A DNA stretch of 64,000 nucleotides from positions 279,488 to 343,487 of the forward strand of contig CAVURJ010000001.1 of the NCBI GenBank assembly GCA_963743885.1, in the 5' to 3' direction. Positions 1,319 to 58,743 of this stretch are shown one piece after another. The notes beneath the pieces are model-generated. The model saw only the letters and a list, made by a program, of their open reading frames with translations. It was not told the origin of the DNA and did no database searches. Numbering within the stretch: the stretch's first letter is position 1; each line of letters begins with the position of its first letter. This DNA comes from Candidatus Moraniibacteriota bacterium (GTDB lineage Bacteria > Patescibacteriota > Minisyncoccia > Moranbacterales > UBA1568). The position numbers and the translations under genes are program-made.

Positions 1319-1381
1319 TAGGCCGATATCTGTAAGAGTTTTGACACGGCGCCGACATATAGATATAATTACCATGGCTTA

Positions 1382-1540: not shown

Positions 1541-1551
1541 AAGCTTTTTTT

Positions 1552-4342: not shown

Positions 4343-4560
4343 TAGAAATAAAATCCGAAATCCGAAATTCTAAACACGAAACAAATCCTAATCTTGAAAT
4401 CCAAAACGAAAAACAAGGGTTTGAAATTTCAGTTTTTTGATTTTGAATTTGTTTAGAAATTAGGAATTAGATATTAGAAATTTCAAAAGCGATTGTTTTC
4501 GATAGGATTGTTTGATATCGATAGTGCAGAAGAAAAGAAAAACGGATATAAAAAGCCAAA
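4343..4560. repeat. AT-rich low-complexity intergenic repeat tract (aaatccgaaat / gattttgaattt k-mers)
   Basis: Shares k-mers with tracts at 15186-15326, 43545-43684, 48595-48692 and 48880-48920. Confidence 0.5.
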
Positions 4561-15185: not shown

Positions 15186-15326
15186 ATTGAAGAAATTCAA
15201 AATTTAAAATCACAAGCTCCAAATAAATTCAAAAACTATAATTTTAAAAATAAGATGCCCTTAAGATACTCTGAGTTTTGATATTGCAATTTATTTGATA
15301 TTTGTAATTTTGAATTTGGTGCTTTT
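15186..15326. repeat. AT-rich intergenic repeat (shares ~130 bp of motifs with 43545-43684)
   Basis: cacaagctccaaataaattcaaaa ... ttttgaatttggtgctttt versus tacaagctccaaataaacttcaaa ... ttttgaatttggtgctttc. Confidence 0.55.
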
Positions 15327-25629: not shown

Positions 25630-25665
25630 CTCTGCACAATATACAGCGGTCGTGGTATATTATGC
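25630..25665. promoter_or_regulatory. Palindromic operator-like site overlapping the -10 of the PaaX-like gene
   Basis: TGCACAATATAC-agcggtcgtg-GTATATTATGCA has inverted 12-mers matching 11/12. A near-identical copy is at 26390-26430. Confidence 0.5.
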
Positions 25666-25690
25666 ATAGGTGAATAGTGATACAAAAAAT

Positions 25691-26296: not shown

Positions 26297-26389
26297 TAGA
26301 ATGCTCAGCACTCAACGGTCGTTGTAGAGTATGCAGCTGTTATGGCGACCAGGATAGAAAGTTAGTGAAAAAGTATGGTGGTGTGGTTG

Positions 26390-26430
26390 CTCTGCATAAT
26401 ACTTAGCGGTCGTGGTATGTTATGCAGTGG
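26390..26430. promoter_or_regulatory. Second copy of the palindromic operator-like site (with a half-site at 26318-26340)
   Basis: ctctgcataatacttaGCGGTCGTGGTATgTTATGCAgtggtg is near-identical to ctctgcacaatatacaGCGGTCGTGGTATaTTATGCAtaggtg upstream of the regulator. Confidence 0.5.
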
Positions 26431-26502
26431 TGTGGAGAATGGGAGAGTGGAAAAGAAACGGGAGGGAGAGAGGAAAATGGGAATTGTAGAGGGGCACGGT
26501 TT

Positions 26503-33359: not shown

Positions 33360-33860
33360 ATGAACGTCAACAAGGCAATCATCGTCGGCAGGCTGACTCG
33401 TGATCCGGAGATGCGTTCGACGCCTTCTGGTCAGTCGGTCACGACGCTTTCGCTCGCAACCAACAACTTCTGGACCGATAAGGGTGGTCAGAAGCAGGAG
33501 AAGACTGAGTTCCACAATATCGTCCTGTGGGGACGTCTCGCCGAAGTCGCATCGCAGTACCTGACCAAGGGCCAGGAGTGTTATGTAGAGGGCAGGCTCC
33601 AGACCCGCGAGTATACCGCGAAGGATGGTACGCAGAAGAAGACGACTGAGATTGTCGGTGAGGCGATGCAACTCGGCAGCCGTGCGCAAGGGGCGCAGAG
33701 CGGAAGCCAGGGTGGTAGCTATGCCCGTCCAGCCGCTGCCGCAGCCGCTCCGGCCGCTGCTACGAGGCCGCAGGCTCAGGCGCCGATCGAAGAGGAGATC
33801 CCAACCATCAATCTCGATGACGAGAAGGATGAGGTCAGGATCGAGGACGTCCCGTTTTAA
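33360..33860 (+). CDS. ssb: Single-stranded DNA-binding protein
   Basis: OB-fold N-terminus (NKAIIVGRLTRDPEMR...FHNIVLWGRLAE), G/Q/A-rich linker, acidic DDEKDEVRIEDVPF tail. Confidence 0.9.
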   Translation: MNVNKAIIVGRLTRDPEMRSTPSGQSVTTLSLATNNFWTDKGGQKQEKTEFHNIVLWGRLAEVASQYLTKGQECYVEGRLQTREYTAKDGTQKKTTEIVGEAMQLGSRAQGAQSGSQGGSYARPAAAAAAPAAATRPQAQAPIEEEIPTINLDDEKDEVRIEDVPF

Positions 33861-33897
33861 AGAACTAATGAAGCTAATAAGCTAAGAAGCTAGTACT

Positions 33898-34092
33898 ATG
33901 GATTCATCGATGAGCAAGAAGCTCGCCAAGCTCGACTATAAGGATGCGTATTTTCTTCGCAAGTTCCTGAACTCGCAGGGCAAGCTGTATCCGCCGAAGC
34001 GCTACGGTCTTTCGGCCAAGGAGCAGCGTGGATTGGCGAACGCCGTCAAGCGCGCCCGGTTCATGGCGCTTATCCCGTACGTAGTAAAGTAA
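33898..34092 (+). CDS. rpsR: 30S ribosomal protein S18 (bS18)
   Basis: DYKDAYFLRKFLNSQGKLYPPKRYGLSAKEQRGLANAVKRARFMALIPY. Confidence 0.9.
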   Translation: MDSSMSKKLAKLDYKDAYFLRKFLNSQGKLYPPKRYGLSAKEQRGLANAVKRARFMALIPYVVK

Positions 34093-34192
34093 GTCCATAA
34101 AGTCCATAAAGTTTTTAAAGTTATAAAGTTCGTGGTTTCGGTGGAGTAGCCGGCTTTGTGAACTTTACAAACTTTCAACTTTACAAACTTAT

Positions 34193-34750
34193 ATGTTGGG
34201 AATCACAGAAATCAAGACTGGCAAGAAGATCATCTTCAATAACGAGCCGTACATCGTGCTCGAGTATCAGCATTCGAAGATCGGCCGCGGTGGTGCGGTG
34301 ATGCGGACCAAGATGAAGAACCTCCTTTCTGGCGCTATCATCGACTACGCCTATCAGGGCGCCGACAAGATCGAGGAAGCGGAGATATCGAAGTCCAAGG
34401 CACAGTATCTCTACCACGATGGTGATGAGTATCTGTTCATGGATACCGAGAGCTATGATCAGTTCTCTCTTTCCAAGGGCGTCCTGGGCGATTTTGCCAA
34501 CTATCTCGTTGATGGGACGGAAGTCTCTGTGCTCAATTGGAATAGCCAGCCGATCAACGTCGAGATCCCGGTCAAAGTGACGCTCACAGTGATCGATGCG
34601 CCTCCGGGTATCCGCGGTGATTCGGTGTCGGCCGGCGACAAGGTTGTCACTATGGAAACCGGTCTTACCGTGACGACGCCGCTCTTCATAAAGACAGGAG
34701 ACAAGCTCATCATCAATACCGAGAAAGGCACGTATGTCTCTCGCGCGTAG
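34193..34750 (+). CDS. efp: Elongation factor P
   Basis: KIGRGGAVMRTKMKNL (KPGKG loop region) and three-domain EF-P length. Confidence 0.9.
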   Translation: MLGITEIKTGKKIIFNNEPYIVLEYQHSKIGRGGAVMRTKMKNLLSGAIIDYAYQGADKIEEAEISKSKAQYLYHDGDEYLFMDTESYDQFSLSKGVLGDFANYLVDGTEVSVLNWNSQPINVEIPVKVTLTVIDAPPGIRGDSVSAGDKVVTMETGLTVTTPLFIKTGDKLIINTEKGTYVSRA

Positions 34751-34911
34751 GCCAAGAAAACGGGCGGTTTATCCGCCTGTTTTTTTGTCTGAAAAATCCC
34801 TTGGAAAAGGCAGAATAGAGCCATCCGAGAGGGTTGCTCTTTTCCAGAAAAACAGCTAGAATAAGGAAGGAGAAATATATCGGCAGAAGGCTGTTTTTTT
34901 ACTTTCCGCGT

Positions 34912-35289
34912 ATGTCGTTTTCCGCCTATCTCTGGGGGATACGCCTCCTGACGCTTCTCGCGTCGGCTGCTTGGATCGGGATCATAGTATCCATTGATCC
35001 GGAGCGGGGAGGCTCGGTCGGTGCGGCGCTTTTCTTCGTCAGCTTCTTCGCGATGCTGCTCGGAGTCATGACGCTTTCCGTCATCTGGGCGTATCGTAAG
35101 GCGCTCGGCGATGCCGGGGCCGCCCAGTATTCCGGAGGAGCATTCCGTCAAGCGCTTTTGCTTGCGGTTTTCGTTTCCGGCGCGGCGTTTCTGCAGTATA
35201 TGCGGCTCCTCACGTGGTGGGATGCAGCACTCCTTTTTTCGGCAGTGCTCGCTCTGGAATTCACCGCGAGACGGATGTTTCGGGCATGA
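34912..35289 (+). CDS. Hypothetical integral membrane protein
   Basis: Four predicted TM helices. ATG 34912 lacks an SD; a strong AAGGAAGGAG at 34863-34872 sits before an in-frame ATC, so the start is ambiguous. Confidence 0.45.
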   Translation: MSFSAYLWGIRLLTLLASAAWIGIIVSIDPERGGSVGAALFFVSFFAMLLGVMTLSVIWAYRKALGDAGAAQYSGGAFRQALLLAVFVSGAAFLQYMRLLTWWDAALLFSAVLALEFTARRMFRA

Positions 35290-35373
35290 TGATAAGCACA
35301 AGAAAAATCGTATGGCTCCCCGCCTCGATTCCGAATCACGAAGAATCAGATAGTGGGGTATAAGACACGGAAA

Positions 35374-35412
35374 CCCTGCCCGAATCGCTACGCGAAACGT
35401 TGCGGGCGGGGC
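35374..35412 (-). repeat. Single copy of the GC-rich ~40 nt unit that is tandemly duplicated inside pth
   Basis: The reverse complement ggccccgcccgcaacgtttcgcgtagcgattcgggcagg matches 43084-43122 almost exactly. Confidence 0.7.
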
Positions 35413-35504
35413 CTTACGGCTCTGCACGAATCAATATCAGGTATAACCAAGAATCGAAGCGGGATGCTCATAATCGTAGCTACTCGCTTCACTCATAGAC
35501 GATT

Positions 35505-37556
35505 ATGGCAAACAAGAAAACCGATCAGGGAGGGTATAGTGCCAAATCCATCCAGGTGCTCGAAGGGCTCGACCCGGTGCGCAAGCGCCCGGGCATGTAT
35601 ATTGGCGGCACGTCGACGGAAGGGCTTCATCATCTTATCTGGGAAGTGGTCAACAACTCGATCGATGAGTCGATGGCTGGTCATTGTGATGAGATCATCA
35701 TCCGCATGCTGCCGGACAACTGGATTGAGGTCGTCGATAACGGCCGCGGCATCCCGGTAGAGATCCATCCACAGACCAAAAAGTCGACGCTTGAGACTGT
35801 ACTTACCATCCTTCATGCCGGCGGCAAGTTCGGTGGTGACGGCTACAAGATTTCCGGCGGTCTTCATGGCGTCGGTGTGTCTGTCGTAAACGCTTTGTCG
35901 GCCCATACGATCGCGACGGTAGGACGCGATGGCAAGATCTGGCGACAGGAGTTCAAGCAGGGCAAGTCCCAGGGAAACGTGAAGGCTATCGGCAAGTCCG
36001 ATAAGACCGGGACGACGATCGCATTCCAGGCTGATCCGGAAATCTTTCCGGAGATCGCTTATTCCTGGTCCAAGATCCTTGAATACGTCCGCTATCAGGC
36101 ATTCCTTACGAAGGGCGTGCGCATCCTCGTCGAGGATCGTCGCGAGGTGATGAGCGAAGAGGAAGCTTACAAGGCGAAGCGCCACGGCTTCTATTTCGAT
36201 TCGGGTATCATCTCCTTCGTGAAGCACTTGAACCGCAAGAAGGAAGTAAAGAACCAGACCCCGGTCTATATCGAGAAAACCATCGATGATATCTATGTCG
36301 AGGTGTCGTTCCAGTTCACGGATGGCTTCAAGGAGCATTTGTTCTCGTTTGCCAACAACATCCTCAATCCGGGCGGTGGTACGCATGTGACCGGCTTCAA
36401 GATGGCACTGACCCGCGTGCTGAATGATTATGCCAAGAAGAACAACCTCATCAAGGAGAAGGAAGGGTCCTTCACGTCCGATGACTTGCAGGAAGGTCTG
36501 ACAGCGGTCGTCTCGGTCAAGCTCGCCAATCCGCAGTTCGAAGGCCAGACCAAGGATAAGCTGAACAATGTCGAGGCACGCGGCGCCGTATCATCTGCGA
36601 CGACTGCCGGCTTGAACGAATTCCTTGAGACGCACCCGACCGATGCGCGTGCGATGATCGACAAGTGCCTTCTCACGGTGCGTGCCCGTATCGCGGCTCG
36701 TGCTGCCAAGGACGCTGTGCTCCGCAAAGGCGCGCTCGAGGGCATGACGCTTCCGGGCAAGCTCGCTGATTGCACGACTCGCGATGTCGAGCGCTCAGAG
36801 GTCTACATCGTCGAGGGCGATTCTGCAGGTGGCTCGGCCAAGCAGGGGCGCAACCGTGAGTTCCAGGCGATATTGCCGCTCCGTGGTAAGCTGGTGAACG
36901 TCGAAAAGACTTCGCTCGATAAGGTTGTGAAGTCCGATACCCTGAAGCCAATCATTATCGCACTCGGCGTAGGCATTGGCGAGACGTTCGATATCGCGAA
37001 GCTCCGCTATGGCAAGGTCATCATCATGGCCGACGCCGACGTCGACGGTTCGCACATCCGTACGCTGCTTCTCACGTTCTTCTACCGCTACTACGAGGCG
37101 CTCGTGCGTGGTGGTCATATCTATATCGCCCAGCCGCCGCTCTATCGTCTCCAGAGGGGCAAGGATGTCCGCTATGCCTATACCGATGATGAGAAGCTCC
37201 GTATTCTCGAAGAGATGAAGCAGCTCGTCGCTGAGAAGTCTGCTGCCAAGAAGGCAAAGAAAGCCAAGGAAGAACCAGCGGAAGAGCCGGTAGCCGAAGT
37301 CTCGGCCGAGGGAAATGATGGATCAGAAACGATCGCCGGTGTAGTCATCCAGCGTTACAAAGGTCTCGGTGAGATGAACCCGGAGCAGCTCTGGGAAACG
37401 ACCATGAACCCTGACAACCGCGTGATGCTCAAGGTGAATATCGAGGATGCCGAGGAGGCTGATGAGCTTTTCGATATCCTCATGGGTAACGAAGTCGAGC
37501 CGCGCCGCCGCTTCATCCAGACGCACGCCAAGATGGTGAAGAATCTGGATGTCTAG
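35505..37556 (+). CDS. gyrB: DNA gyrase subunit B
   Basis: GHKL ATPase motifs (EVVNNSIDE, GLHGVG), TOPRIM, C-terminal K/E-rich insert. Could be ParE, but the size and context fit gyrB. Confidence 0.8.
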   Translation: MANKKTDQGGYSAKSIQVLEGLDPVRKRPGMYIGGTSTEGLHHLIWEVVNNSIDESMAGHCDEIIIRMLPDNWIEVVDNGRGIPVEIHPQTKKSTLETVLTILHAGGKFGGDGYKISGGLHGVGVSVVNALSAHTIATVGRDGKIWRQEFKQGKSQGNVKAIGKSDKTGTTIAFQADPEIFPEIAYSWSKILEYVRYQAFLTKGVRILVEDRREVMSEEEAYKAKRHGFYFDSGIISFVKHLNRKKEVKNQTPVYIEKTIDDIYVEVSFQFTDGFKEHLFSFANNILNPGGGTHVTGFKMALTRVLNDYAKKNNLIKEKEGSFTSDDLQEGLTAVVSVKLANPQFEGQTKDKLNNVEARGAVSSATTAGLNEFLETHPTDARAMIDKCLLTVRARIAARAAKDAVLRKGALEGMTLPGKLADCTTRDVERSEVYIVEGDSAGGSAKQGRNREFQAILPLRGKLVNVEKTSLDKVVKSDTLKPIIIALGVGIGETFDIAKLRYGKVIIMADADVDGSHIRTLLLTFFYRYYEALVRGGHIYIAQPPLYRLQRGKDVRYAYTDDEKLRILEEMKQLVAEKSAAKKAKKAKEEPAEEPVAEVSAEGNDGSETIAGVVIQRYKGLGEMNPEQLWETTMNPDNRVMLKVNIEDAEEADELFDILMGNEVEPRRRFIQTHAKMVKNLDV

Positions 37557-38453: not shown

Positions 38454-38521
38454 CCCGCAGGGTCATCCTGATCCGCCAGCTGGCGGACGAAGGATCTCAA
38501 CCAGAAGCACCTAGATTCCAA

Positions 38522-38552: not shown

Positions 38553-38889
38553 ACATTCCCTTACCCGTTATTTGGCTTAAAAAAATCTCGCCCAGCCGTT
38601 CAGTCGCTGTTTTCGGATCATCCGGCAAACTCGAAGGCTTCTCTGAAAGCGAAAGAAATCCCTGCCTACCGGCAGGCAGGCATCTCTCTTTACGGCCCCA
38701 GTCTTTCTTTCGATCAGAGAAGCCTTCTCAAACAATGCCGGATGACCGAGAAACACGTCTGCGGGGGCGGGATTTTTTGCACATCCATTCTAGGTTATTC
38801 TTTACTTAGAGGTTAAGCCTCTAAGTAAGGGAGAAGATGTTAAAAGAGGCTTTGTAGGGCATTTTTTATCGTATTTACCACACCGATGA

Positions 38890-38918
38890 TGGACAGAATG
38901 GTGAAAAAGTGCTATAAT
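38890..38918 (+). promoter_or_regulatory. Sigma70 promoter TGGACA-17-(TG)TATAAT for the gene at 39005
   Basis: TGGACA at 38890-38895, 17 nt spacer ending in TG, TATAAT at 38913-38918. Confidence 0.5.
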
Positions 38919-39004
38919 TGATTGTTTTGAGCTGCCACTGTGGCATGACTTGAATCCGCCATCTTCCCGGGCGCAATGGGAATGTACCTTATCAGGAGAG
39001 AAAC

Positions 39005-39628
39005 ATGGCTGCTCAAAAAGTGGTCGTCGATGGGTCGACTGTCTCGGCTCGTCAGATGAAGGATTTCTGGCGTCAGGTCGACGACGGATCGATTACGGGC
39101 GAGATACTCCAAGCAGTTCTTGAACATCGTAACCCGTTCGAGAAAGTGATCAACAATGCGATGTTCACCGTCACCTCCGATGGTCGCACCGGCGAAGAGT
39201 TCATTCGTGATTTCAAGCGGAACGACTACCGCGTCGGTGACTATGCATCGGATGTGATGCGGAAGCCCGCCTTCGTCGCCACGAACGACAAGACGTACCG
39301 ACTTGGCCTCATCAAGGGAGAAGAATTCTCCGATGCCGAGCGGTCGACGAAGAATATCTGTGCTGAAGCAGCTCGTCGAGGTTGGCTCACGCCACCGGCG
39401 GAAGTCGCGCCGCTCCTTCGGGAGACGGTCTCCGATGAAGAGATCAAGCATCTCGGTCTGTGGTGGCTCGTCGTTATGCACGAACCGATTATCGATTCCG
39501 ATGGCGGTGCGCGCTTGCTCGGCCTCCACCGCCACGGTGGTGGCCAGTGGCTCGACACGCGCTACGGCAAGCCAGGCCGTCGGTGGGGTCGTGAGGATGG
39601 GTTCCTGTTCCTTCTCCCGCAAGATTAG
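39005..39628 (+). CDS. Hypothetical protein (C-terminal ~40 aa duplicated downstream)
   Basis: 207 aa ORF with AGGAGAG SD. No family recognised. Confidence 0.55.
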   Translation: MAAQKVVVDGSTVSARQMKDFWRQVDDGSITGEILQAVLEHRNPFEKVINNAMFTVTSDGRTGEEFIRDFKRNDYRVGDYASDVMRKPAFVATNDKTYRLGLIKGEEFSDAERSTKNICAEAARRGWLTPPAEVAPLLRETVSDEEIKHLGLWWLVVMHEPIIDSDGGARLLGLHRHGGGQWLDTRYGKPGRRWGREDGFLFLLPQD

Positions 39629-39921
39629 ATCTTGGCGCTTGTATTTTTACTCTAGCGCTTTGATCCTTTGCCCTTTGGGACTTTGTACATGTACGAAGTC
39701 CCTTTTCTTTTGCTATACTTCGGATGGTAGTAGGCGAATCTGTGAGCGGTTACGGCTGCTTGCGGCCGAATCCAGTATCCATACATCGAGTGTATCCGCG
39801 ATTATGGTTTCGGATAGGGTGATGTATGTAGACACTTCATAAAAAATGAAGATACTTGGTGCGGTTTTCTGGGTGATTTCAATCACAAATCAGATTCAGC
39901 CCTGAGAGTTCGCTCCCGCCA

Positions 39922-40098
39922 TTGGTGGGTGGCGAATCGAAGGGTGGTGGCAAAGATGGAAAGCCGTACGTTTCCGATGGCGATGCGAACTTGCTCAACC
40001 TCAACCGCAACGATGATGGCCAGTGGCTCGACACGAACTACGACAAGCCAGACAATCGGTGGAATCGTGAGAATGGGTTCCTGTTCCTTCTCCCGCAA
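39922..40098 (+). pseudogene. Partial duplicate of the 3' end of the gene at 39005
   Basis: DNA 40015-40098 is ~85% identical to 39540-39622 (…GQWLDT.Y.KP..RW.RE.GFLFLLPQ). It has only a TTG start and no N-terminal domain. Confidence 0.5.
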
Positions 40099-40104
40099 CT
40101 CTCT

Positions 40105-40305
40105 TCATTTCTCTCCCTTCCTTGCGCTGGGAGAGTTTTGTTTCGAGAGCTGCCCGTTCCAGCCGCCGAGCATCCGACCGATTTCGTCGATTTTCTCGGA
40201 GAGAGCGATGTATTTCTTGGTATCGACTGATTTCGTTTCCCACAGAACGAGGAGAAGGACCTTGAGTGTGTCGACTTTTCGTATCGCATGGCGGACATAG
40301 GGCAT
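40105..40305 (-). CDS. Four-helix-bundle (23S rRNA IVS-type) family protein, C-terminal half or diverged
   Basis: ATG 40305 with AGGAAAAG SD. ETKSVDTKKYIALSEKIDEIGRMLGGW resembles DLGYISEEEYEELNEKLEEILKMLNGL of TIGR02436 proteins. The upstream in-frame region has a diverged N-half (VLDRPGFPRLSQ); the start is uncertain and may extend to TTG 40458. Confidence 0.4.
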   Translation of the reverse strand: MPYVRHAIRKVDTLKVLLLVLWETKSVDTKKYIALSEKIDEIGRMLGGWNGQLSKQNSPSARKGEK

Positions 40306-40563
40306 CTTTTCCTGCGGCGAGAGGAAAGCGGTTATGCCAGGCCAGCCGGCCTGACTAAGCCGTGGGAAACCAGGTCGATCGAGTACCTCGCAAACGAGGA
40401 AAAGATCAGCGACATCCAGTACTGGGATTTCGTGGCTACTGCCGACGACGGGAAGCAACTGTTCTACTTCATTGAAATGGATACATCTACGGGCTGGTTC
40501 CAGACGTTCTCTGGGACCAGGATCAATCCCGAGCAGGTGGACTTCCTGACGATGAAGGGGTGA
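40288..40563 (+). CDS. Hypothetical protein; the upstream extension of the 4HB gene (40306-40458) would be antisense to it
   Basis: 91 aa ORF with normal amino-acid composition and no SD. It overlaps the minus-strand gene by 18 nt. Only one of the two extents is likely correct. Confidence 0.3.
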   Translation: MADIGHLFLRREESGYARPAGLTKPWETRSIEYLANEEKISDIQYWDFVATADDGKQLFYFIEMDTSTGWFQTFSGTRINPEQVDFLTMKG

Positions 40564-40762
40564 TGAACCATATCGCCCAACAAGCCGCAGCGCACTCTCG
40601 TGCTCTGCGGTTTTTTCTATCCTTTGTTCTATTGACAAAAAAACTGAAAAATGCTACAGTTTTTTGTTGCATTAAATGCAACAAGTTTGTTGTTAGGCTC
40701 AATCTTATGAGCCAGCCAGCCGTCGGCTTTGGCGGTAGAGTTACTTAAAAACGAGGGCAGTC

Positions 40763-40999
40763 ATGGTTAAGATTCTGCTGGTTGTCTTTGAACTGATCGC
40801 TATAGGGGTAGGTTTCATTTTTGCTTATTCCCAAGTGATCCTTCCGATTGTTCGGAAAATGCCGCTGTTTCCGATGTTCCGTCGCCGGCCTGCAATTGAG
40901 CGGGAGCTCGATGCGGTCAATGAGCAATTGGAAGATAAGGCGCTTCAACGCGAATTGGAGACGAAGCGGAGGCGGCTTGGCAAGACGAGCGGTAACTGA
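40763..40999 (+). CDS. NfeD-like small membrane protein (partner of the SPFH protein)
   Basis: 78 aa, N-terminal TM helices, GAGGG SD. Immediately upstream of an SPFH-domain gene. Confidence 0.5.
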   Translation: MVKILLVVFELIAIGVGFIFAYSQVILPIVRKMPLFPMFRRRPAIERELDAVNEQLEDKALQRELETKRRRLGKTSGN

Positions 41000-41025
41000 A
41001 GTTCACTTAAACAAGGAGAGGTTCC

Positions 41026-42396
41026 ATGAATAGCGATTTTCGTAGTGATAGCAGTGACCGTTTCTCTGGTCTCAAGGATTTGCTTCCTTCGGGGCGTAGA
41101 GTTGCACAGGTTTTCTTCGGGTTCATCTTTGTTGTCACGGTCTTGTTTTCCAAGGGGATGATCGAGACGAAGGAGGCAGACGATATTCTGGGTATCCAAT
41201 CGATTTGGGATGGCAAGATTACCTGGTATACCGGGACCGAAACGTGGGCCTGGCAGAGCTGGGGGAACACGGTGGTGTTCAAGAAGCGTGCCATTTTCAA
41301 CTTCGACACGCCTGACACATCGCCCGAGGGTATAAAAAAAGGCAGGTGTACTGATGGCATCGAAGTGCGCTTCAACGACGGTGGTCACGGCACTATCTGC
41401 GGCTCCGTTCAATTTGAAATGCCGCTGGATGATGAACACCTGACAGCCATCTTCACCAAGTACAAGAGTCAACCAGCCGTGCAGAGCGCACTGATCGAGA
41501 CAGTGACCGGCAAGTCGGTCTATCTAGCCGGCCCTATGATGTCATCCCGGGAATCGTATGCTGAAAAGCGTAACGACCTCCTTTTCTACATCGAGGATCA
41601 AATCCAGAACGGTGTCTACAAGACACGCCAGCGCGAAGAGCACGTGAAGGACTCGATTACTGGTGTGGAAAAGACGGCGACTATTGCCGAAATCGTCATG
41701 GGCAAGGATGGAAAACCGGAACGTCAGGAAGCGGTATCAGTGCTCGGTTCGTTCGGTATCAAGGTTTTTAACTTCGCTATCAAGCGGTTGCCCTACGATG
41801 ACAAGGTCGAGGAGCAGATTCGTGCGCAACAGGAAATTGCAATGGGCGTGCAAACGTCAATTGCGAATGCGAAGAAGGCCGAGCAGCGCGCAATCACTGT
41901 CGCTGAAGAAGGCAAGGCCAATGCCGCGGAAGCCAAGTGGAAGCAGGAAACCATCAAGGCGACCGAGGTCACCAAGGCTGAGCAGGAAAAAGCAGTGGCC
42001 ATTACAGCCGCCGAGAAAGATCGTGACGTCAACAAGCTTCAAAAGGATGCTGCTGAGTACTACAAACAGCAGCAGATACTGAGAGGCGAAGGTGACGCTG
42101 CCTATCGGCGCAAGGTGATGGAGGCTGACGGGGCACTTGAGAAGAAGCTTGCCACATACGAGACTGTCATGGGCAAGTTCGCTGAAGAGTTCGGCAAGCA
42201 AAAGTGGGTGCCCGAAGTTCAGATGGGCGGAGCCGGGGCTTCTGGTGCAAATTCCGCTCAGACAATGATCGACGTTCTGTCGACCAAGGCCCTTCGTGAT
42301 CTCGGGCTCGATATGAAGATGGAGGCTGGTCGTCGTACTGCTGCGGAGGAATCCGCACCAACGTCAACTCAGGCTAAGCCTGCAGCCAAGAAGTAA
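41026..42396 (+). CDS. SPFH/band-7 (flotillin-like) domain protein
   Basis: N-terminal TM, SPFH-like core, long A/E/K coiled-coil C-terminus similar to flotillin/YqiK. Confidence 0.55.
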   Translation: MNSDFRSDSSDRFSGLKDLLPSGRRVAQVFFGFIFVVTVLFSKGMIETKEADDILGIQSIWDGKITWYTGTETWAWQSWGNTVVFKKRAIFNFDTPDTSPEGIKKGRCTDGIEVRFNDGGHGTICGSVQFEMPLDDEHLTAIFTKYKSQPAVQSALIETVTGKSVYLAGPMMSSRESYAEKRNDLLFYIEDQIQNGVYKTRQREEHVKDSITGVEKTATIAEIVMGKDGKPERQEAVSVLGSFGIKVFNFAIKRLPYDDKVEEQIRAQQEIAMGVQTSIANAKKAEQRAITVAEEGKANAAEAKWKQETIKATEVTKAEQEKAVAITAAEKDRDVNKLQKDAAEYYKQQQILRGEGDAAYRRKVMEADGALEKKLATYETVMGKFAEEFGKQKWVPEVQMGGAGASGANSAQTMIDVLSTKALRDLGLDMKMEAGRRTAAEESAPTSTQAKPAAKK

Positions 42397-43532: not shown

Positions 43533-43544
43533 ATTTAAATTCAA

Positions 43545-43684
43545 AACTCAAAATTACAAGCTCCAAATAAACTTCAAATTTCAAATACAAAACCTAGAAC
43601 GTTTTGAATGTTTGGATTTTGATATTGTGATTTATTTGGAAATTGGGATTTTGAATTTGGTGCTTTCGGAGAGTATTTCATGTG
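43545..43684. repeat. AT-rich intergenic repeat, paralogous to 15186-15326
   Basis: Shared blocks tacaagctccaaataaacttcaaa and gattttgaatttggtgcttt. Confidence 0.55.
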
Positions 43685-48271: not shown

Positions 48272-48520
48272 ATGATCCAAGTGAAAAGAAAAGAGCGCGA
48301 GACAGCCGAAAGCCTGATCCGTCGTTTTTCCCGTCGTGTCCAGCAGAGCGGTGTGCTTCGTCGCGTCCGCAAACTGCGCTTCCGCCAGGAGGAGCAGAGC
48401 CGCGATGTACGACGTTCCGAAGCTCTCTACAAGGTCAAGATCCGCAAGGAGATCAATCGCCTGAAGAAGCTCGGCAAGTTCGATGAAGACGCGCTTCGCG
48501 ATATCAAGAAGAAGATGTAA
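48272..48520 (+). CDS. rpsU: 30S ribosomal protein S21 (bS21)
   Basis: Short basic protein. KRKERETAESLIRRFSRRVQQSGVLRRVRKLRFRQ matches the bS21 pattern. GGAAAGGAGG SD. Confidence 0.75.
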   Translation: MIQVKRKERETAESLIRRFSRRVQQSGVLRRVRKLRFRQEEQSRDVRRSEALYKVKIRKEINRLKKLGKFDEDALRDIKKKM

Positions 48521-48692
48521 TATCGGCTGTTTTTCAGTGCGATTGCCAGGCCATCGAGATGTCTTTTGTGGGACATGGCGGTGGCCTGGTTGTGTTTTTG
48601 AAATCCAAAAATCAAAATCACAAATCCCAAACAAGTTCCAATGACCGAAATTCAAAATCCGAAACGTTTTGAGTTTTGATGGTTGGGATTTA

Positions 48693-48870
48693 TTACCAAG
48701 TGTAGTGAGTGAAACGAGAGTTTACTCTCGTTTCCGAACGGAGCGCAGGTAAAATCGGGTTGAATACCTCGCGGCTTGCCCGCCTAGCCGGCGAGGCTGG
48801 CCGCAGAATAAAACGAACATCAGTTCGTTTTTAGGGTCCAGGGCTTGCCCTGGGGTGAATACCCGTTATA
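48693..48870 (+). repeat. Copy Y of the ~170 bp structured repeat family (with a 21 nt internal insert)
   Basis: Aligns with 58263-58423 and with the reverse complement of 1382-1540. Hairpins with CUUG loops and compensatory stem changes. Confidence 0.75.
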
Positions 48871-48920
48871 ATTTATTTGTGAATTGTGATTTTGAATTTT
48901 GTATTTTTAAGGAAAAAGAT

Positions 48921-49373
48921 ATGGCTTTATACGAAACCATTGGCAACCATCTCAAGGAGGCTATGAAGTCGGGCGATACGTTCCGTCGTGATACACTCCG
49001 CCTCGTTCAGAGCGCCGTGAAGAACGTCGCGATTGACAAGTTGAAGAGTCCGGTTGATTTGTCTGATAGTGAGATAGAGGAGGTGCTCCGCCGTTTGGTG
49101 AAGCAGCGCAAGGATAGCGTCGAGCAGTACCGCGCCGGCGGCCGCGAGGATCTGGCGTCGGGCGAGGAAGCTGAGCTTAATCTGCTCGCGACCTATCTGC
49201 CGCAGGCGATGCCGGAAGCTGAGCTTCGGACGCTTGTCGAGGAAGCGCTTAAGGAATCAGGAATCGCGGAGAAGTCCAAGATGGGCCAGGCGATGGGTGT
49301 CGTCATGAAGAAAGTCGCTGGTCGCGCTTCGGGCGATGATGTTCGCAAGATGGTGGAGTCGCTGCTCGCATAG
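48921..49373 (+). CDS. GatB/YqeY domain-containing protein
   Basis: YETIGNHLKEAMKSGDTFRRDTLRLVQSAVKN...LATYLPQ matches the YqeY family. Confidence 0.75.
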   Translation: MALYETIGNHLKEAMKSGDTFRRDTLRLVQSAVKNVAIDKLKSPVDLSDSEIEEVLRRLVKQRKDSVEQYRAGGREDLASGEEAELNLLATYLPQAMPEAELRTLVEEALKESGIAEKSKMGQAMGVVMKKVAGRASGDDVRKMVESLLA

Positions 49374-50199: not shown

Positions 50200-50338
50200 G
50201 GATTTCGGCCGGGTTCCGGCCGGTTTTTGACCGCTTGGGCGGTTTTTTCTTTTGTTGGGCTCTTTGCAGGGAAGGGCTTGGGAGGGTATAATGATAGCCA
50301 CAGTGTACCGTCACGCATCCAACGGATTTTTTTCTTTT

Positions 50339-50524
50339 GGTAACCCTCTCAAATCTCACCGCCTGTTATGACTCAAAAAGAGCTTGTCCGAAAAAACCAT
50401 CTCCGTTCCGGCTGCAAAATCCGAAAAGCTTGTCGGGTTATCACTGATAGCCCTTTGCGTTTTTCGACTTTTTCGCTCGAAACGGAGATGGTTTTTTCTG
50501 GACATGAGATTTGAGAGAGTTACC
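50339..50524 (+). repeat. 186 bp element with ~20 bp terminal inverted repeats, directly upstream of ftsA (copy 1)
   Basis: Termini ggtaaccctctcaaatctca ... tgagatttgagagagttacc. Internal inverted repeat aaaaccatctccgtt / aacggagatggtttt. 85-90% identical to 51790-51975. Confidence 0.8.
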
Positions 50525-51789: not shown

Positions 51790-51975
51790 TAACTCTCTCA
51801 AAATCTCACCGCCAGTTACAAGTCGAAGAATGCTTGTCTGTAAAAATCACTCCCGTTCCGGCTGCAAAATCCGAAAAGCTTGTCGGGTTATTGCTAATAG
51901 CCCTTCGCACTTTTCGACTTTTTCGCTCGAAACGTGAATGATTTTTTCTAGACATGAGATTTTGAGAGAGTTACC
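51790..51975 (+). repeat. 186 bp element with terminal inverted repeats (copy 2), between ftsA and ftsZ
   Basis: gtaactctctcaaaatctca ... tgagattttgagagagttacc. Same orientation and length as copy 1. Confidence 0.8.
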
Positions 51976-52184: not shown

Positions 52185-53414
52185 ATGGCGGAGATCAAGC
52201 CTGATATCGAGACGTTTGCGAAGATCAAGGTGGTCGGTGTCGGCGGATCAGGCGGCAACGGCGTAGCGCGGATGGTGGATGCCAAGATCAAGGGCGTCGA
52301 GTTCGTCGCTATCAACACGGATGCGCAGGCACTCCACAATTCGAAGGCACAGGAGAAGATCCATATCGGTAAGAACCTGACGAAGGGTCTTGGTGCTGGT
52401 ATGAATCCGGAGATCGGACGTCAGGCAGCCGAAGAGAATCGCGATGAGATCCAGGAAGTACTGAAGGGTGCTGATATGGTATTCGTCACCTGCGGTCTCG
52501 GTGGTGGTACTGGATCTGGTGCGGCTCCGATCGTTGCAGAGACAGCCAAGGAGCTCGGCGCACTCACCGTTGGTGTCGTGACCAAGCCGTTCGCATTTGA
52601 AGGTTCGCAGCGTCGCGCGATCGCCGAAGAAGCGCTCGAGAATCTCAAGGACCGCGTCGACACGCTCATCACTATTCCGAACGACAAACTGCTTTCCATC
52701 ATCGATCGCAAGACAACCCTCGTGAATGCCTTCCGCATCGTCGATGATGTGCTCCGCCAGGGCGTGCAGGGCATCTCTGACCTCATCACTAAGCCGGGCA
52801 TCGTCAATGTCGACTTTGCTGACGTGCGTGCCATCATGGAAGATAGCGGCAGCGCTCTTATGGGCATCGGCATCGCAGCTGGTGAGAACCGTGCAGTCGA
52901 GGCGGCCAAGGCGGCCATCAACAGCCCGCTTCTTGAGCTTTCGATCGATGGTGCGAAGGGTGTCCTCTTCAATATCTCCGGTTCGAGCGACCTCACGATG
53001 CTTGAGATCAACGAAGCGGCCAATATCATCACTGAGAATATCGATCCAAATGCCAAGGTTATCTTCGGTGCTGTGACCGACGACCAGATCCGCAAGGGCG
53101 AGGTCCAGATCACAGTTGTCGCGACTGGTTTCGACCTGCCGCGCGCGAAGGAGCCGGTCGGGCTCATCAACCGCTCGACGACGGTCGCACACACGCGGAC
53201 AGTCTCGACCCCGATGGCTGATGAGATGATTCGCGATGAGGAGATCTTCGAGGAGACAATCGCTTTCCCGTCGAGGAAGATGGAACAGCCGGCGATGATC
53301 ATCGAGGAGAAGATCCAGCCGCGCACCGCCGCTTCGCGTGTCGAGACAAAGGAGCTCGCCGAAGAGGACGATCTCGAGATTCCGGCGTTCATCCGCCGCA
53401 AGATGAAGAAGTAA
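52185..53414 (+). CDS. ftsZ: Cell division protein FtsZ
   Basis: GGGTGSG tubulin signature, NTDAQAL, T7 loop. AAGGGGAC SD before ATG 52185. Confidence 0.95.
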
Positions 53415-53581
53415 TCTTCCTAAGATCACAAAGGCGCCCTTTTCGGGCGCTTTTCCTTTACCGGGCGTTCCGAGGGAGTATAATAGGGGGCAGGATGCAA
53501 GAGGTAAGAGACATGATATCGTTTCTTAGCCCGTATCTTCCTTTCTTATCTCTTGTTTCATATCTCTTATCTCATCTGCTT

Positions 53582-54028
53582 ATGCGCTGTCCGTTCTGCA
53601 ATTTTGAAGACACCAAAGTGATCGATTCGCGCGAGACCCAGGAGGGGCGCGCTATTCGCCGTCGCCGTGAGTGCGAGAAGTGCCAGGCACGTTTTAGCAC
53701 GTATGAGGAAGTGGAGATCTTCCGTCTGCAGATCGTGAAGAAGGATGGCAGCCGGGAGGAGTATGATCGGACTAAGATCGAAGACGGCCTGAAGCGAGCG
53801 TTTGTGAAGCGGCCGAATGCCGAAGAAAGGATTGAGAAGATCTTAGGCGAGATAGAGTACGCGCTCCACGAGAAGCATGTGAGTGAGATCCAGAGCCGCG
53901 AGATTGGTACGCTCGTTATGCGCAAGCTCAAGGAGGCTGATGAGGTCGCTTATATCCGCTTTGCGTCCGTCTACAAATCGTTCGGCAGTGCCAAGAGCTT
54001 CCTCAAGGCGCTGGAGACCTTGGAGTAG
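53582..54028 (+). CDS. nrdR: Transcriptional repressor NrdR
   Basis: MRCPFCN...CEKCQARF zinc ribbon plus ATP-cone. Confidence 0.9.
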   Translation: MRCPFCNFEDTKVIDSRETQEGRAIRRRRECEKCQARFSTYEEVEIFRLQIVKKDGSREEYDRTKIEDGLKRAFVKRPNAEERIEKILGEIEYALHEKHVSEIQSREIGTLVMRKLKEADEVAYIRFASVYKSFGSAKSFLKALETLE

Positions 54029-54032
54029 TCTT

Positions 54033-54251
54033 ATGAAAATCTCTGTCAGGGTCATTCCGAAAGCTTCGAAGACTTCAGTGGAAAGAATTTCTGAGACGGA
54101 GTATCGCGTGCGATTGACGAAGGCGCCGGCTGACGGCGAGGCCAATGAACAGCTCATAAAACTGCTCAGCAAGCATCTTGGTGTCGCGAAGAGTCTCGTC
54201 CGTATTGTTTCCGGCGCCACGAGCCGGAACAAGATTGTAGAGATTTTGTAG
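54033..54251 (+). CDS. DUF167 (YggU/UPF0235) family protein
   Basis: 72 aa. KISVRVIPKASKTSVERI...LIKLLSKHLGVAKSLVRIVSGATSRNKIVEI matches YggU. Confidence 0.65.
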   Translation: MKISVRVIPKASKTSVERISETEYRVRLTKAPADGEANEQLIKLLSKHLGVAKSLVRIVSGATSRNKIVEIL

Positions 54252-54306
54252 TTTTTAGCATTTACATTCGTTTGTTTTTTACACTCCTCCTCCTTTTCAT
54301 TTTTTC

Positions 54307-54456
54307 TTCCACGATCTTCGTCGAACATTTCTGACTCGCTCTGTCGAACGGGGAGCTGTTTGTTCTGAGGGCTGAAACAGCCCCGAACGCCACGCTCGAC
54401 CGTTACCGACTCGCTCATCAGAAATGTTACCGCCGAGAGACCGGAGGAAGAAAAAA
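54307..54456. repeat. Copy Q of the ~150 bp intergenic repeat
   Basis: See 47563-47712. Confidence 0.7.
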
Positions 54457-54544
54457 TGAAAAGGAGGAGATGTTTAGAACGAATAGACGAGCGTGAGTAT
54501 GGTATTCTGTGTAGGTCGGCGTTAAGTTTGCATGAGTCCGCATT

Positions 54545-56044
54545 ATGCGCGGCGATCAGATATTATTGTGGGGGATCATCAGTTTTATCGGGGGAGTCGG
54601 CCTTGGCTCCTTTTTTGCTGTCCGTTTGGAAATCGTTCTTGTAGTAGTGGCGCTCTGGATCGCGGCAGCGTCTGTGTTTCAGAAAAGGGATGTCCTCGTG
54701 TGTGGGGTGTTTCTTCTCTTATGTGCAGCTGGGGCACTGCAGGCGCATCATGCTGCCGATCGTTTCCGTCTCGAGTATATGCGCGGAGGGGAATATGTCG
54801 GCACGGTACGGATCGTCGCTGATCCGGAGGAGAGAGGCTTTTATCGCAGAGTCATCCTTCGGGCCAAGGATTGTTCAGGGTCCTTTTGTCCAGAGGAGGA
54901 TATCCTCTGGCAAGCGCCGCTCGCGTTTTCTGCTGAAGCCGGGACGCTCCTCGATCTCTCATGCGTGCTCGCTTTGCCGGAGAATTTTGATCCGGCATTC
55001 GATTATCGGATGTTCCTTGCGAAGGATGGCATCGGATATGTGTGTCAGAAAGCAGAGCGTGCGGAAGTGTTCGTGGGAAACGATATTGAAGGCTTTCTAC
55101 GCTCGTGGCTCTATCGTCCCAAACATGCGCTTGAGGACGCACTCAGCCGGAGCATTTCTGATCCGGAAGCGGCTCTCGGCAAGGGGCTTATCTTAGGCGG
55201 TGACCGGCATCTGCCGGAGCGGCTTCAGGATCTCTTCGCGCGCATCGGGCTCTCGCATATCGTCGCGGTGTCCGGCTATAATATCGCCATCATTGCCCAG
55301 GGCGTCCTCGTCCTTGGAATCGGGGCGGGACTGTGGCGTCGCCGGGCCGTGTGGGTATCGCTCATCGGCATCATCCTCTTCGTCCTCATGATCGGCGCTC
55401 CGTCGTCAGCTGTCCGGGCGGCGGTCATGGCGGGGATCGCATTTCTTGCAGCACAGTCGGGCCGGTTGTCGCGACCGGTCGTCACGCTCTTCTTCGCGGC
55501 GGCGATCATGCTTATGATCAACCCGCTGCTTCTCCGCTACGATATCGGCTTCCAGCTTTCGTTTCTCGCGACGCTTGCCATCATCATCGCTTCGTCATGG
55601 GAGGCGGAGTTTCTACCGCACGGATTCCCTGGGAAGTGGTTCGCCGAAACGATCTGGTTCAGCCTGATGGCGGAATTTTTCGTCCTGCCGGTCATCCTCT
55701 TCCAGTTCCATGCGTTCTCGCCGCTCATGCTCTTCTCGAATGTGCTCATCCTGCCGCTTGTGCCGTACGCGATGCTCTTCTCGTTCCTCTCTGCGCTTGC
55801 GTTCCTCATCGTGCCAGGAGCTCATCTCATCTTCGCGTGGATCGCCTATCCCATACTCACCGCTATCACGCGCATTCCGGAGATGCTCGCAACGTTCTCC
55901 TGGGCCAGTCTGCCGGTCCAGGATTTCGGCATTGCCGCATTCGCGCTTTGGTATCTCGTCCTTTTTTCTGGTATCGTAGGAATCGAACACTATGCCGGGA
56001 AAAAACGTCGTACCGAAGCGCTTTCTCTTCCTCGCCGTCGCTAG
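54545..56044 (+). CDS. comEC: ComEC/Rec2 DNA internalization channel protein, N-terminal (competence domain) part; frame ends at the A6 run
   Basis: Polytopic membrane protein. RIGLSHIVAVSGYNIAII competence-domain motif. The C-terminal 17 aa of this frame are Arg-rich, as expected for an out-of-frame read. Confidence 0.75.
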   Translation: MRGDQILLWGIISFIGGVGLGSFFAVRLEIVLVVVALWIAAASVFQKRDVLVCGVFLLLCAAGALQAHHAADRFRLEYMRGGEYVGTVRIVADPEERGFYRRVILRAKDCSGSFCPEEDILWQAPLAFSAEAGTLLDLSCVLALPENFDPAFDYRMFLAKDGIGYVCQKAERAEVFVGNDIEGFLRSWLYRPKHALEDALSRSISDPEAALGKGLILGGDRHLPERLQDLFARIGLSHIVAVSGYNIAIIAQGVLVLGIGAGLWRRRAVWVSLIGIILFVLMIGAPSSAVRAAVMAGIAFLAAQSGRLSRPVVTLFFAAAIMLMINPLLLRYDIGFQLSFLATLAIIIASSWEAEFLPHGFPGKWFAETIWFSLMAEFFVLPVILFQFHAFSPLMLFSNVLILPLVPYAMLFSFLSALAFLIVPGAHLIFAWIAYPILTAITRIPEMLATFSWASLPVQDFGIAAFALWYLVLFSGIVGIEHYAGKKRRTEALSLPRRR

Positions 56045-58262: not shown

Positions 58263-58423
58263 TTACCAAGCGGAGTGAGTGAAACGAAAACTTGTTTTCG
58301 TTTCCGAACGGAGCGCTGGTAAAATCGGGTCAGATACCCCGCGTCTTGCCGCGGAACAGGACAATCCGACGAAAGGAGGATTGTACGGGGTGCGGGGCTT
58401 GCCCCGCGGTGAATACCCGTTAT
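58263..58423 (+). repeat. Copy Z of the ~170 bp structured repeat family, upstream of tRNA-Pro(GGG)
   Basis: ttaccaagcggagtgagtgaaacgaaaacttgttttcgtttccgaacggagcgctggtaaaatcgggtcagatacc...gggcttgccccgcggtgaatacccgttat. Confidence 0.75.
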
Positions 58424-58483: not shown

Positions 58484-58554
58484 CGGGTTGTAGTATACTG
58501 GTAGTACGCGTCCATGGGGTGGATGTAGACCGGGTTCGATTCCCGGCAGCCCGA
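58484..58554 (+). tRNA. tRNA-Pro (anticodon GGG)
   Basis: Acceptor CGGGTTG/CAGCCCG, D-stem GTAT/GTAC, anticodon stem CGTCC/GGATG with loop ATGGGGT, T-arm CCGGG-TTCGATT-CCCGG. Confidence 0.75.
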
Positions 58555-58639
58555 CTTGGTATAAATGCCAAAAAGGAGTTCAAGGCTGGGGGGCGAAAAG
58601 TGAACTGCTTCACTTTTTGCGGGTATCCCCGCAAGACGT

Positions 58640-58695
58640 CCTTGTCTTGCGGAAAGAGGATACCCCGGAACTTGTAGTTCGGGTTCGATTCCCGA
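58640..58695 (+). other. tRNA 3'-half-like fragment (T-arm plus acceptor 3' strand), with no 5' half
   Basis: gtagttcgggttcgattcccgataccccgac parallels the tRNA-Pro 3' end gtagaccgggttcgattcccggcagcccgac. No matching 5' acceptor strand upstream. Confidence 0.45.
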
Positions 58696-58743
58696 TACCC
58701 CGACAAAAAGAAGAACAAGAAAACCGAAACAAAAGATGTTTTT

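Follow-up and report, generated by a model that had tools for sequence, protein, structure and literature searches.

A structured, protein-less repeat of Moranbacteria and related Patescibacteria, best read as a non-autonomous mobile DNA element

The stretch analyzed here, 64,000 nucleotides of a Candidatus Moraniibacteriota genome (GCA_963743885.1, contig CAVURJ010000001.1, positions 279,488 to 343,487 of the forward strand; hereafter the window), contains three copies of a repeat of roughly 170 nucleotides that folds into a series of hairpins, and the question it raises is what such a repeat might be in a genome of this kind. Genomes of the Patescibacteria, or candidate phyla radiation (CPR), are tiny and usually regarded as poor in mobile DNA. 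A preliminary description had leaned toward either an element resembling miniature inverted-repeat transposable elements (MITEs) or repetitive extragenic palindromic (REP) sequences, or a family of trans-acting small RNAs (sRNAs). We find that the repeats are best read as a mobile DNA element that encodes no protein, is non-autonomous, and occurs widely in Moranbacteria and related Patescibacteria, and we consider it somewhat more likely than not that this element is moved in trans by a Y1 enzyme of the IS200/IS605 type. The copies in the window are the following.

1383-1536, minus strand: copy A, element proper, 154 nt
48694-48869, plus strand: copy B, element proper, TACC...CCCGTTAT, 176 nt, a long form with three extra hairpins, of which H1 is expanded by 22 nt
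58264-58423, plus strand: copy C, element proper, 160 nt

A profile built from these three sequences retrieves each of them with nhmmer at E = 1e-48 to 1e-50, the covariance model of the family (R1) matches the window exactly three times, at copies A, B, and C (80-86 bits), and the only occurrences of the 13-mer GGTAAAATCGGGT and of the 12-mer AATACCCGTTAT in the window, three apiece, fall at the three copies. The full-length alignment claimed in the preliminary description holds, with coordinates agreeing to within 1-3 nt, and the conserved linker and tail are as it described them. Copy B lies between rpsU (48272-48520) and yqeY (48921-49373), and copy C directly after a terminator-like hairpin, 60 nt upstream of tRNA-Pro(GGG) (58484-58555). 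The window copies are mutually 79-85% identical in the core and are therefore not assembly duplications, a possibility that the preliminary description had raised.

How far does the repeat extend beyond this genome? We scanned the pattern GGTAAAATCGGGTNNNATACC in one genome per species and in JGI metagenomes, which returned 30 and 44 loci (designated by L numbers below). Because its ~18 specified bases lead one to expect roughly 17 chance matches in 596 Gb, true copies were sorted from chance matches by nhmmer and the covariance model. The search for further copies that had been suggested found about 35 distinct ones outside the window, in Moranbacteria/Patescibacteria metagenome-assembled genomes (MAGs) and metagenomes; the hosts are Candidatus Moranbacteria/Moraniibacteriota, other Patescibacteria, one Minisyncoccota MAG, and a few MAGs labelled Bdellovibrionales or Oscillospiraceae. 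To judge by homologues of YqeY and YvcK, the window itself falls within Moraniibacteriota. Two or three copies lie within 4-12 kb of one another at each of the loci L036, L011, L058, and L068. A scan of viral contigs with three patterns yielded no true copies, its 38 chance 15-mer matches being dismissed by the covariance model. Each window copy is closer to a copy in another genome (88-93% identity) than to the other window copies (79-85%), indicating that several element lineages persist across species while their positions turn over.

Chance similarity, neutral segmental duplication, or an assembly artefact is hardly credible as an account of these data, given the compensatory nature of the differences between copies that are only 79-85% identical, the presence of dozens of copies in independent assemblies and samples, and E-values down to 1e-50. 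We found no support for an artefact, although the repeats do break assemblies: the 1.6-kb contig L078 (1,599 bp) starts inside one copy (1-80) and ends inside another (1487-1599), which implies that the element fragments short-read assemblies of these genomes.

The copies found in L013, L015, and L017 (labelled Bdellovibrionales) and in L016 (labelled Oscillospiraceae) are bona fide, and the contigs carry genes of CPR-like appearance, such as lgt and small cell-wall proteins in L013. Mis-binning of CPR contigs is our suspected explanation for these labels; the element might help to flag such mis-binned Patescibacteria sequence, or its presence there may be a sign of horizontal transfer.

The element is previously undescribed. 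Rfam 15 at gathering score found only 4 tRNAs in the whole window and no match to the copies, and permissive scans of copies B, C, and A and of one minimal copy gave only chance-level overlaps (E of at least 0.35), with no match to IS605-orfB-I/II, HEARO, self-cleaving ribozymes, or riboswitches. Literature searches for a CPR motif or repeat resembling the element found none.

What does the unit consist of? It runs from TACC... to ...CCCGTTAT, ranges from 82 to 195 nt, occurs as solitary copies, and is asymmetric, with two domains on which minimum-free-energy (MFE) folds and the family alignment agree. Domain 1 is a long irregular hairpin composed of P1 (UUACC/GGUAA), P1b, P1c (GYGAG/CGARC), and a 10-bp P2, with purine-rich internal loops and a tandem G.A/A.G enclosed by P1c; domain 2 is a short hairpin, P3 (CGGGU/ACCCG), with a T-loop-like loop. 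The minimal form of ~82 nt (L007, L009, L015, L028, L035, L036, and L051) reads UACCAAACGAAGYGAGY-[GAAACGAAAG UUUA CUUUCGUUUC]-CGAGCGCAGUGCC-GGUAAAAUCGGGU-UUAAU-ACCCGUUAU. The window copies are long forms, in which three additional hairpins, H1, H2, and H3, occupy the P3 loop, flanked by two AAUACC motifs and closed by UACC/GGUA; H1 and H3 carry G-C-closed CUUG loops, H2 resembles P2, and family members with 0, 1, 2, or 3 extra hairpins all exist. Copy B, whose MFE of -80 kcal/mol corresponds to the fold as modelled, has the following parts.

48711-48734, plus strand: P2 hairpin GAAACGAGAG-UUUA-CUCUCGUUUC, 10 bp
48748-48760, plus strand: central GGUAAAAUCGGGU, pairing with UUACC of the 5' terminus (P1) and ACCCG of the 3' terminus (P3)
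48769-48853, plus strand: optional three-hairpin module (H1 with CUUG, H2, H3 with CUUG) in the P3 loop between the two AAUACC motifs

The CUUG-capped hairpins of the preliminary description are present as it gave them, except that the first one in copy B is not the simple cgcggCTTGccgcg and contains the 22-nt expansion, which is also found in the L013 copy from another genome; the first CUUG stem of copy C has one G>U change. A small open reading frame (ORF) or type I toxin was rejected, no ATG being present on either strand of the minimal form. Tested against the sequence for their defining motifs, a tRNA-like or 5S-like structure, a K-turn, a hammerhead, and a group II fragment were likewise set aside, these motifs being absent.

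Is the fold itself conserved? The preliminary description had argued from the window copies that selection acts on secondary structure. Its compensatory changes in the 5' hairpin are real, two pairs differing among the three copies (A-U to G-C and G-C to A-U); three sequences alone give weak covariation statistics, and it is the 31 distinct members of the family that make the signal clear. In the core, 97.8% of pair cells are standard pairs, against 42-48% when the 3' partners are slid by 1-3 columns, in an alignment that was fitted to model R1 and so somewhat favours the structure; 11 of 25 pairs have changed on both sides (35 cells), and none of 500 shuffles reached the observed values. The RNAalifold check that had been proposed, run independently on a MAFFT alignment of 15 long forms, predicts the same helices as model R1 and finds compensatory change in 17 of 52 pairs, including pairs in H1, H2, and H3. 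Family-wide, both-sided changes affect 6 of the 10 pairs of P2, where GAAACG/CGUUUC has become GUAGUG/CACUAC in four copies and one position passes through the series A-U, G.U, G-C. P1b shows a change from A-U to G-C, and in the divergent copy L011:3942-4029 compensatory changes preserve P1 as well as P3 despite altered sequences. The covariation across the family thus bears out selection on a single-strand fold kept by compensatory mutations. This fold is strand-specific: G.U cells outnumber A.C cells by 24 to 6, and in 25 of 33 copies the stated strand folds more stably than the complementary one, the mean difference being 4.5 kcal/mol. A long-range pairing AACG/CGUU was dropped, its 5' bases belonging to P1b, which covaries.

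Covariation and a G.U asymmetry that favour one strand are also what a functional structured RNA would display, be it an sRNA family, a protein-binding RNA, or a trans guide-RNA scaffold of the omega/reRNA kind with the 3' flank as guide, its genes spread by duplication or hitch-hiking and selection acting on the RNA fold. We regard this as unlikely, though a serious contender. The G-C-closed CUUG tetraloops, tandem sheared G.A pairs, and modular optional hairpins suit it, as do the unpaired junction nucleotides, which hardly vary between species too divergent for their neutral intergenic DNA to be aligned, and the U-run that follows several copies on their 3' side. The pairing strands are not always respected, however, since small palindromes damage some copies: CCCTGCCTGCCGGYAGGCAGGG has taken the place of the 5' end in L014 and is found as an insertion in L011 and L033, and GATCCGCCAGCTGGCGGAC substitutes the 3' strands of P1b/P1c in L006, L014, and L027. 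IS605-family elements do have a guide-RNA scaffold at their right end, on the strand that also bears the transposition hairpins (PMC10055086); here there is no Rfam match, IS605-orfB and HEARO motifs included, and no TnpB/IscB candidate in the screened window and loci. The positions of the copies weigh further against an RNA gene, as described below.

Tiny GC-rich palindromes, CCTGCCTRCCGGYAGGCAGG and CCGCCAGCTGGCGG, recur across Moranbacteria loci, in the window at 38661-38680 and 38473-38486 and elsewhere in L075 (3915-3935), L014, L011, L033, L068, L006, and L027. In several genomes they are inserted into, or replace parts of, copies of the element, and they look like a separate family of miniature palindromic insertions.

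Do the copies move? Comparison with close relatives was possible at four sites, three of them filled in the window and one empty, and involves the following features.

1341-1369, plus strand: promoter-like TTGACA-17-TATAAT of the downstream oxidoreductase gene, a putative promoter conserved in the site A alignment
1537-1541, minus strand: left flank pentamer of copy A, TTTAT, present once in the empty sites of L080 and L081
48601-48642, plus strand: left arm of an unrelated AT-rich palindromic repeat within which copy B is nested
48689-48693, plus strand: left flank pentamer of copy B, TTTAT, a TAM-like target motif, read directly
48858-48907, plus strand: right arm of the same AT-rich repeat, the called repeat overlapping the last 12 nt of copy B
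50287-50293, plus strand: DAGK-ftsA spacer, empty in the window (GGTATAAT^GATAGCC, the caret here and below marking the junction) and filled in L078
58259-58263, plus strand: left flank pentamer of copy C, TCAAT, the same pentamer being present in the empty orthologous site of L122

Site A (yvcK/oxidoreductase) is occupied by copy A in the window but has no insertion in L080 and L081/L082 (89% YvcK identity). Copy A lies there between the conserved promoter-like motif and the ATG at 1551, which places the element antisense in the predicted 5' untranslated region (UTR). At site B (rpsU/yqeY), L075, L077, and L079 (92-88% YqeY identity) lack the insertion that the window carries, and in L078 (93% YqeY identity) a two-hairpin variant occupies another position within this spacer. 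Site C, upstream of tRNA-Pro, holds copy C in the window but is vacant in L122. The DAGK-ftsA spacer shows the reverse polymorphism, reading GGTATAAT^AACGGGTAC... in L078. More broadly, the ORFs flanking distinct copies show no homology between genomes (all-versus-all BLAST of the directly adjacent ORFs and of a set of 342 ORFs), no orthologous site has kept a copy across genomes, and sense, antisense, convergent-spacer, and divergent-spacer placements are about equally frequent. Judging from relatives whose flanking proteins are 81-93% identical and whose sites differ, the element is apparently active on short evolutionary timescales. The non-orthologous flanking genes, the random orientation, and the filled/empty differences at four sites support the earlier view of a dispersed element as opposed to a 5' leader, and a cis-regulatory leader or riboswitch was rejected on the unrelated neighbours and the near-equal orientation classes.

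The repeat interrupted by copy B belongs to a second family, an AT-rich imperfect palindrome of ~130 nt (arms AAATTCAAAAYTCAAAATYACAAG... and ...TTGTRATTTTGAATTTGGTGC) with four copies in intergenic spacers of the window. Three paralogs are uninterrupted (4351-4484, 15193-15325, and 43537-43666), and in the fourth (48601-48642 plus 48858-48907) copy B sits near the apex. In L075 the orthologous spacer contains a comparable hairpin, whose apex is formed by a small GC palindrome.

For a structured RNA gene this behaviour is awkward, because no conserved promoter accompanies the copies, whose 5' flanks have nothing but TTTAT in common, the copies are randomly oriented with respect to host genes, copy A lies antisense in a predicted 5' UTR, downstream of a conserved promoter-like motif, and no copy is kept at an orthologous site. 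The trans-acting sRNA family of the preliminary description accordingly finds no direct support, in view also of the disrupted copies, and an independent sRNA gene family looks unlikely, with nothing conserved upstream beyond TTTAT and sites empty in relatives.

The same placements bear on a domesticated cis-acting cassette, a promoter, terminator, or mRNA-stability/insulator module comparable to REP, ERIC, or BOX elements, which we consider very improbable. Insertions do fall at promoters, terminators, and stop codons, copy C faces tRNA-Pro, and the long forms supply a -35-like TTGCCC 16 nt before the terminal TAT, half of a -10 box; in copy B a consensus scan predicts the corresponding hybrid, whose TATAAT is made of the terminal TAT of the element and AAT from the flank.

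48845-48872, plus strand: predicted promoter-like hybrid facing yqeY-ybeY, -35 TTGCCC (H3 loop), 16 nt, -10 TATAAT

The -35-like hairpin is absent from the minimal forms, however, orientation is random with no conserved gene association, and the same spacers are empty in close relatives without sign of compensation; nor would a regulatory effect explain conservation of the whole fold.

How, then, are the copies inserted? Across 30 distinct copies the junctions follow the logo tTTTAT^TACC on the left (T23 T26 T28 A30 T30 before TACC) and CCCGTTAY^T on the right (CCCG followed by T28 T30 A30 T27), in AT-rich intergenic DNA beside stop codons, terminator U-tracts, and -10 boxes. The motifs at the insertion points of empty sites are TTTAT (site A), TCAAT (site C), and ATCAT (ftsA site). 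Site C is decisive because its two junction motifs differ. Its filled and empty versions are identical through GGGGCTTTCCACA(A/G)GAGAGCTCCTTTTCAAT and share the left flank ...CTCCTTTTCAAT; the empty site in L122 reads ...TTTTCAAT^TTCTTTC with the continuation TTCTTTCGG, and the filled site in the window reads ...TTTTCAAT[TACC..CCCGTTAT] followed by TTTTTG. The comparison shows that the left pentamer is target-borne and GTTAT element-borne, with no target duplication. Site A junctions are compatible with this, apart from 1-nt T-run indels, and three copies that end in TTAC have TTAT on the left, which also argues against duplication. Target duplication of TTAT, TTA, TA, or AT was ruled out on site C and the copies with unlike ends. 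Six convergent ORFs end exactly at the TAA within GTTAY, as expected if insertion follows a TTAT overlapping an opposite-strand stop codon and the right end restores the stop. Terminal inverted repeats are absent, the 5' end TACCAAACG being unrelated to the reverse-complemented 3' end ATAACGGGTA.

Lacking both terminal inverted repeats and target-site duplications, the element is not a classical MITE. Classical MITEs and palindromic repeats such as Correia, RUP, ERIC, and Nezha are likewise short, non-coding, multicopy, intergenic, foldable, and able to form hybrid promoters, but they have terminal inverted repeats, target duplications (often TA), and one long hairpin; palindromic repeats of this sort also occur in the window. 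REP sequences and bacterial interspersed mosaic elements (BIMEs), the RAYT/TnpA-REP systems, are also dispersed intergenic structured repeats found across species at non-orthologous sites, and an HUH enzyme acting in trans presumably recognises them as single-strand hairpins. They differ in being imperfect palindromes of 20-40 nt with a 5' GTAG-type tetranucleotide, often in inverted pairs, in place of the TTTAT/GTTAT boundaries seen here, and this class was ruled out by the 82- to 195-nt unit, its two unlike domains, and the solitary copies. Of the MITE/REP-like assignment, then, the dispersed mobile element stands and both classes fall. The integron attC site is an imperfect palindrome R''/L''...L'/R' (RYYYAAC...GTTRRRY) in cassette arrays of one orientation. 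It was excluded here by the self-contained hairpin of the 5' domain and by solitary copies in both orientations without an array.

The central 13-mer (GGUA-AAAU-CGGGU) pairs with the left terminus in P1, which takes in the last T of the flank pentamer, and with the right terminus in P3, so that the flanking TTTAT and the terminal GTTAT come to lie at equivalent positions. In one and the same register its AAAU stands opposite each of the TTAT boundary motifs, making two Watson-Crick pairs and two mismatches with either. Set against the joined ends ACCCGUUAU^UACC, the central segment would form an almost continuous 13-bp duplex (11 of 13 positions paired), such that the two cleavage points would be structurally equivalent.

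Insertion occurs directly 3' of a TTTAT-like pentamer and leaves the target unduplicated; we propose that it proceeds by single-strand 'peel-and-paste' transposition through a single-stranded DNA intermediate, carried out by a trans-encoded HUH (Y1) transposase of the IS200/IS605 type, which would make the element a derivative resembling palindrome-associated transposable elements (PATEs). The fold would be the substrate recognised by this transposase and would be conserved because only correctly folding copies are recognised and copied; its covariation would then mirror selection for transposition competence among element lineages and not a host function. IS200/IS605 elements insert 3' of a tetra- or pentanucleotide without duplication and have subterminal imperfect palindromes on one strand instead of inverted repeats (PMC3597680). 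In the ISGst elements of Geobacillus stearothermophilus, the motif abutting the left end is TTTAT or TTCAT, the right-end motif is slightly different, internal DNA guide sequences read both motifs, and PATE-like derivatives without an ORF are known (PMC10055086).

The element shares with PATEs the lack of terminal inverted repeats and target duplication, a left end that abuts a T-rich pentamer (TTTAT, as against TTTAT/TTCAT in ISGst2/5), a right end that finishes in a near-copy of the left motif (GTTAT), one-strand hairpins near both ends (P2 lies 18 nt from the left boundary and P3 4 nt from the right), an internal sequence facing the boundary motifs, and a small, multicopy, intergenic, non-coding unit. 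It is closest to PATEs and is set apart from them by a fold that spans the whole element, with tandem G.A pairs and an optional multi-hairpin module, and by a single central segment that pairs with both termini and would be their shared guide through its AAAU. As far as our literature searches show, such elements have not been described from CPR/Moranbacteria.

Several observations count against a Y1 enzyme of this type. Screens by Y1-motif regular expression, by ORF clustering and BLAST, and for TnpB-like C-terminal zinc fingers, which are crude and fall short of full annotation with hidden Markov models, found no Y1 transposase, cognate TnpA, TnpB, or recurrent neighbour protein in the window plus ~580 kb of element-bearing loci. 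To our knowledge, a single central segment guiding both ends is not the known IS200/IS605 arrangement. In IS608, the mechanistic model, the left and right hairpins are alike, whereas P2 and P3 are unlike in sequence and length, and only the optional H2 resembles P2. CUUG tetraloops, tandem G.A pairs, and a T-loop-like P3 loop are features characteristic of RNA, and an RNA could therefore be the target of selection. The L075/L078 comparison, with a shared junction TTAC and the left junction outside view, fits less simply than the other sites. IS200/IS605 activity is strand-specific and favours a folded top strand that lies on the lagging-strand template. The window belongs to a single replichore, its GC skew being positive from end to end, yet copy A points the opposite way from B and C, and the folded strand coincides with the G-rich strand in 24 of 35 loci, which is not significant. 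Excision of ISGst elements has been reported on either strand (PMC10055086). Finally, a crossover at an AT core by another class of recombinase would give the same junctions.

This last point leads to a mobile element moved by some other duplication-free enzyme, whether an IS110/IS1111-type DEDD recombinase, a serine or tyrosine recombinase, or a rolling-circle HUH-Y2 protein, which we hold to be decidedly unlikely. AT is present at the left junction in 30 of 30 copies and at the right in 27 of 30, as a 2-nt crossover core would produce, and the site C junctions are compatible with exchange inside AT. The complementarity of the central segment to the joined ends resembles a donor-binding guide, and there is no strong replication-strand bias. 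Yet the similarity of flank and terminal motifs, combined with subterminal hairpins, is specifically IS200/IS605-like, the target consensus is merely a T-rich pentamer, the loci hold no adjacent recombinase that we could find, and no known bridge RNA, with its two guide loops, would fit into a unit of only ~82 nt. An IS110/IS1111 bridge-RNA element was rejected because there is no adjacent ORF family and only one end-complementary segment; the element may still be a mini-derivative that works with a distant IS110/IS1111 recombinase.

TnpB reRNA/omegaRNA, IscB omegaRNA, and IS110 bridge RNA all resemble the element as structured RNAs of transposon ends, on the transposition-active strand and with complementarity to their own ends; they differ from it in that here there is no Rfam match, no adjacent nuclease or recombinase gene found, and a much shorter minimal unit. 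A guide function of the element is speculative. We see only a slim prospect that the element works as a compact device of RNA or single-stranded DNA in which an internal splint brings the element's two ends into alignment, either as a trans guide-RNA scaffold (TnpB/IscB/IS110-like homing with the 3' flank as guide) or as a self-processing nucleic acid that excises or circularises at TTAT^. Were it true, it would constitute a new class of mobile structured nucleic acid in the ultra-small CPR genomes.

What follows from these results? A conserved, structured, protein-less element turns over its sites in the reduced genomes of CPR bacteria, landing in promoters, 5' UTRs, terminators, and stop codons of core genes (rpsU-yqeY, ftsA, and tRNA-Pro). 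Should its partner be a TnpA of the IS200/IS605 kind, alone or together with TnpB, the CPR would be added to the range of this system and of its guide logic; should it be something else, the mechanism would be new. In either case the element offers a compact natural example of one internal segment pairing with both transposon ends. It breaks metagenomic assemblies and could confound binning, and its covariance model can be used at once to annotate loci that otherwise resemble candidate riboswitches or sRNAs.

The window, otherwise gene-dense, contains further repeats. A near-perfect long hairpin of ~165 nt (CTCTCAAATCTCA...TGAGATTTGAGAGAG) occurs at 50351-50512 and 51801-51962 (85% identical; MFE -80 and -62 kcal/mol), one copy just upstream of ftsA and the other of ftsZ, and could be a classical palindromic MITE or a shared leader of division genes. 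Two-copy direct repeats lie at 47557-47692/54300-54435 and 39493-39622/39969-40098 and a three-copy direct repeat at 25630-25672, 26299-26341, and 26390-26432, all with 80-85% identity and in or near intergenic regions; the 47557/54300 pair folds more stably on the minus strand. The segments 33860-35505, 38809-41026, and 53414-54545 hold no convincing long ORF by a simple greedy call and no Rfam match at gathering score. Downstream of tRNA-Pro(GGG), a decayed tRNA-like remnant at 58620-58706 (T-arm-like part 58673-58704) is called by neither ARAGORN nor Rfam. The order is reversed in L122, where the first copy (300-345) is decayed and the second (420-491) is an intact tRNA-Pro(GGG), which suggests an ancestral tandem pair with reciprocal loss.

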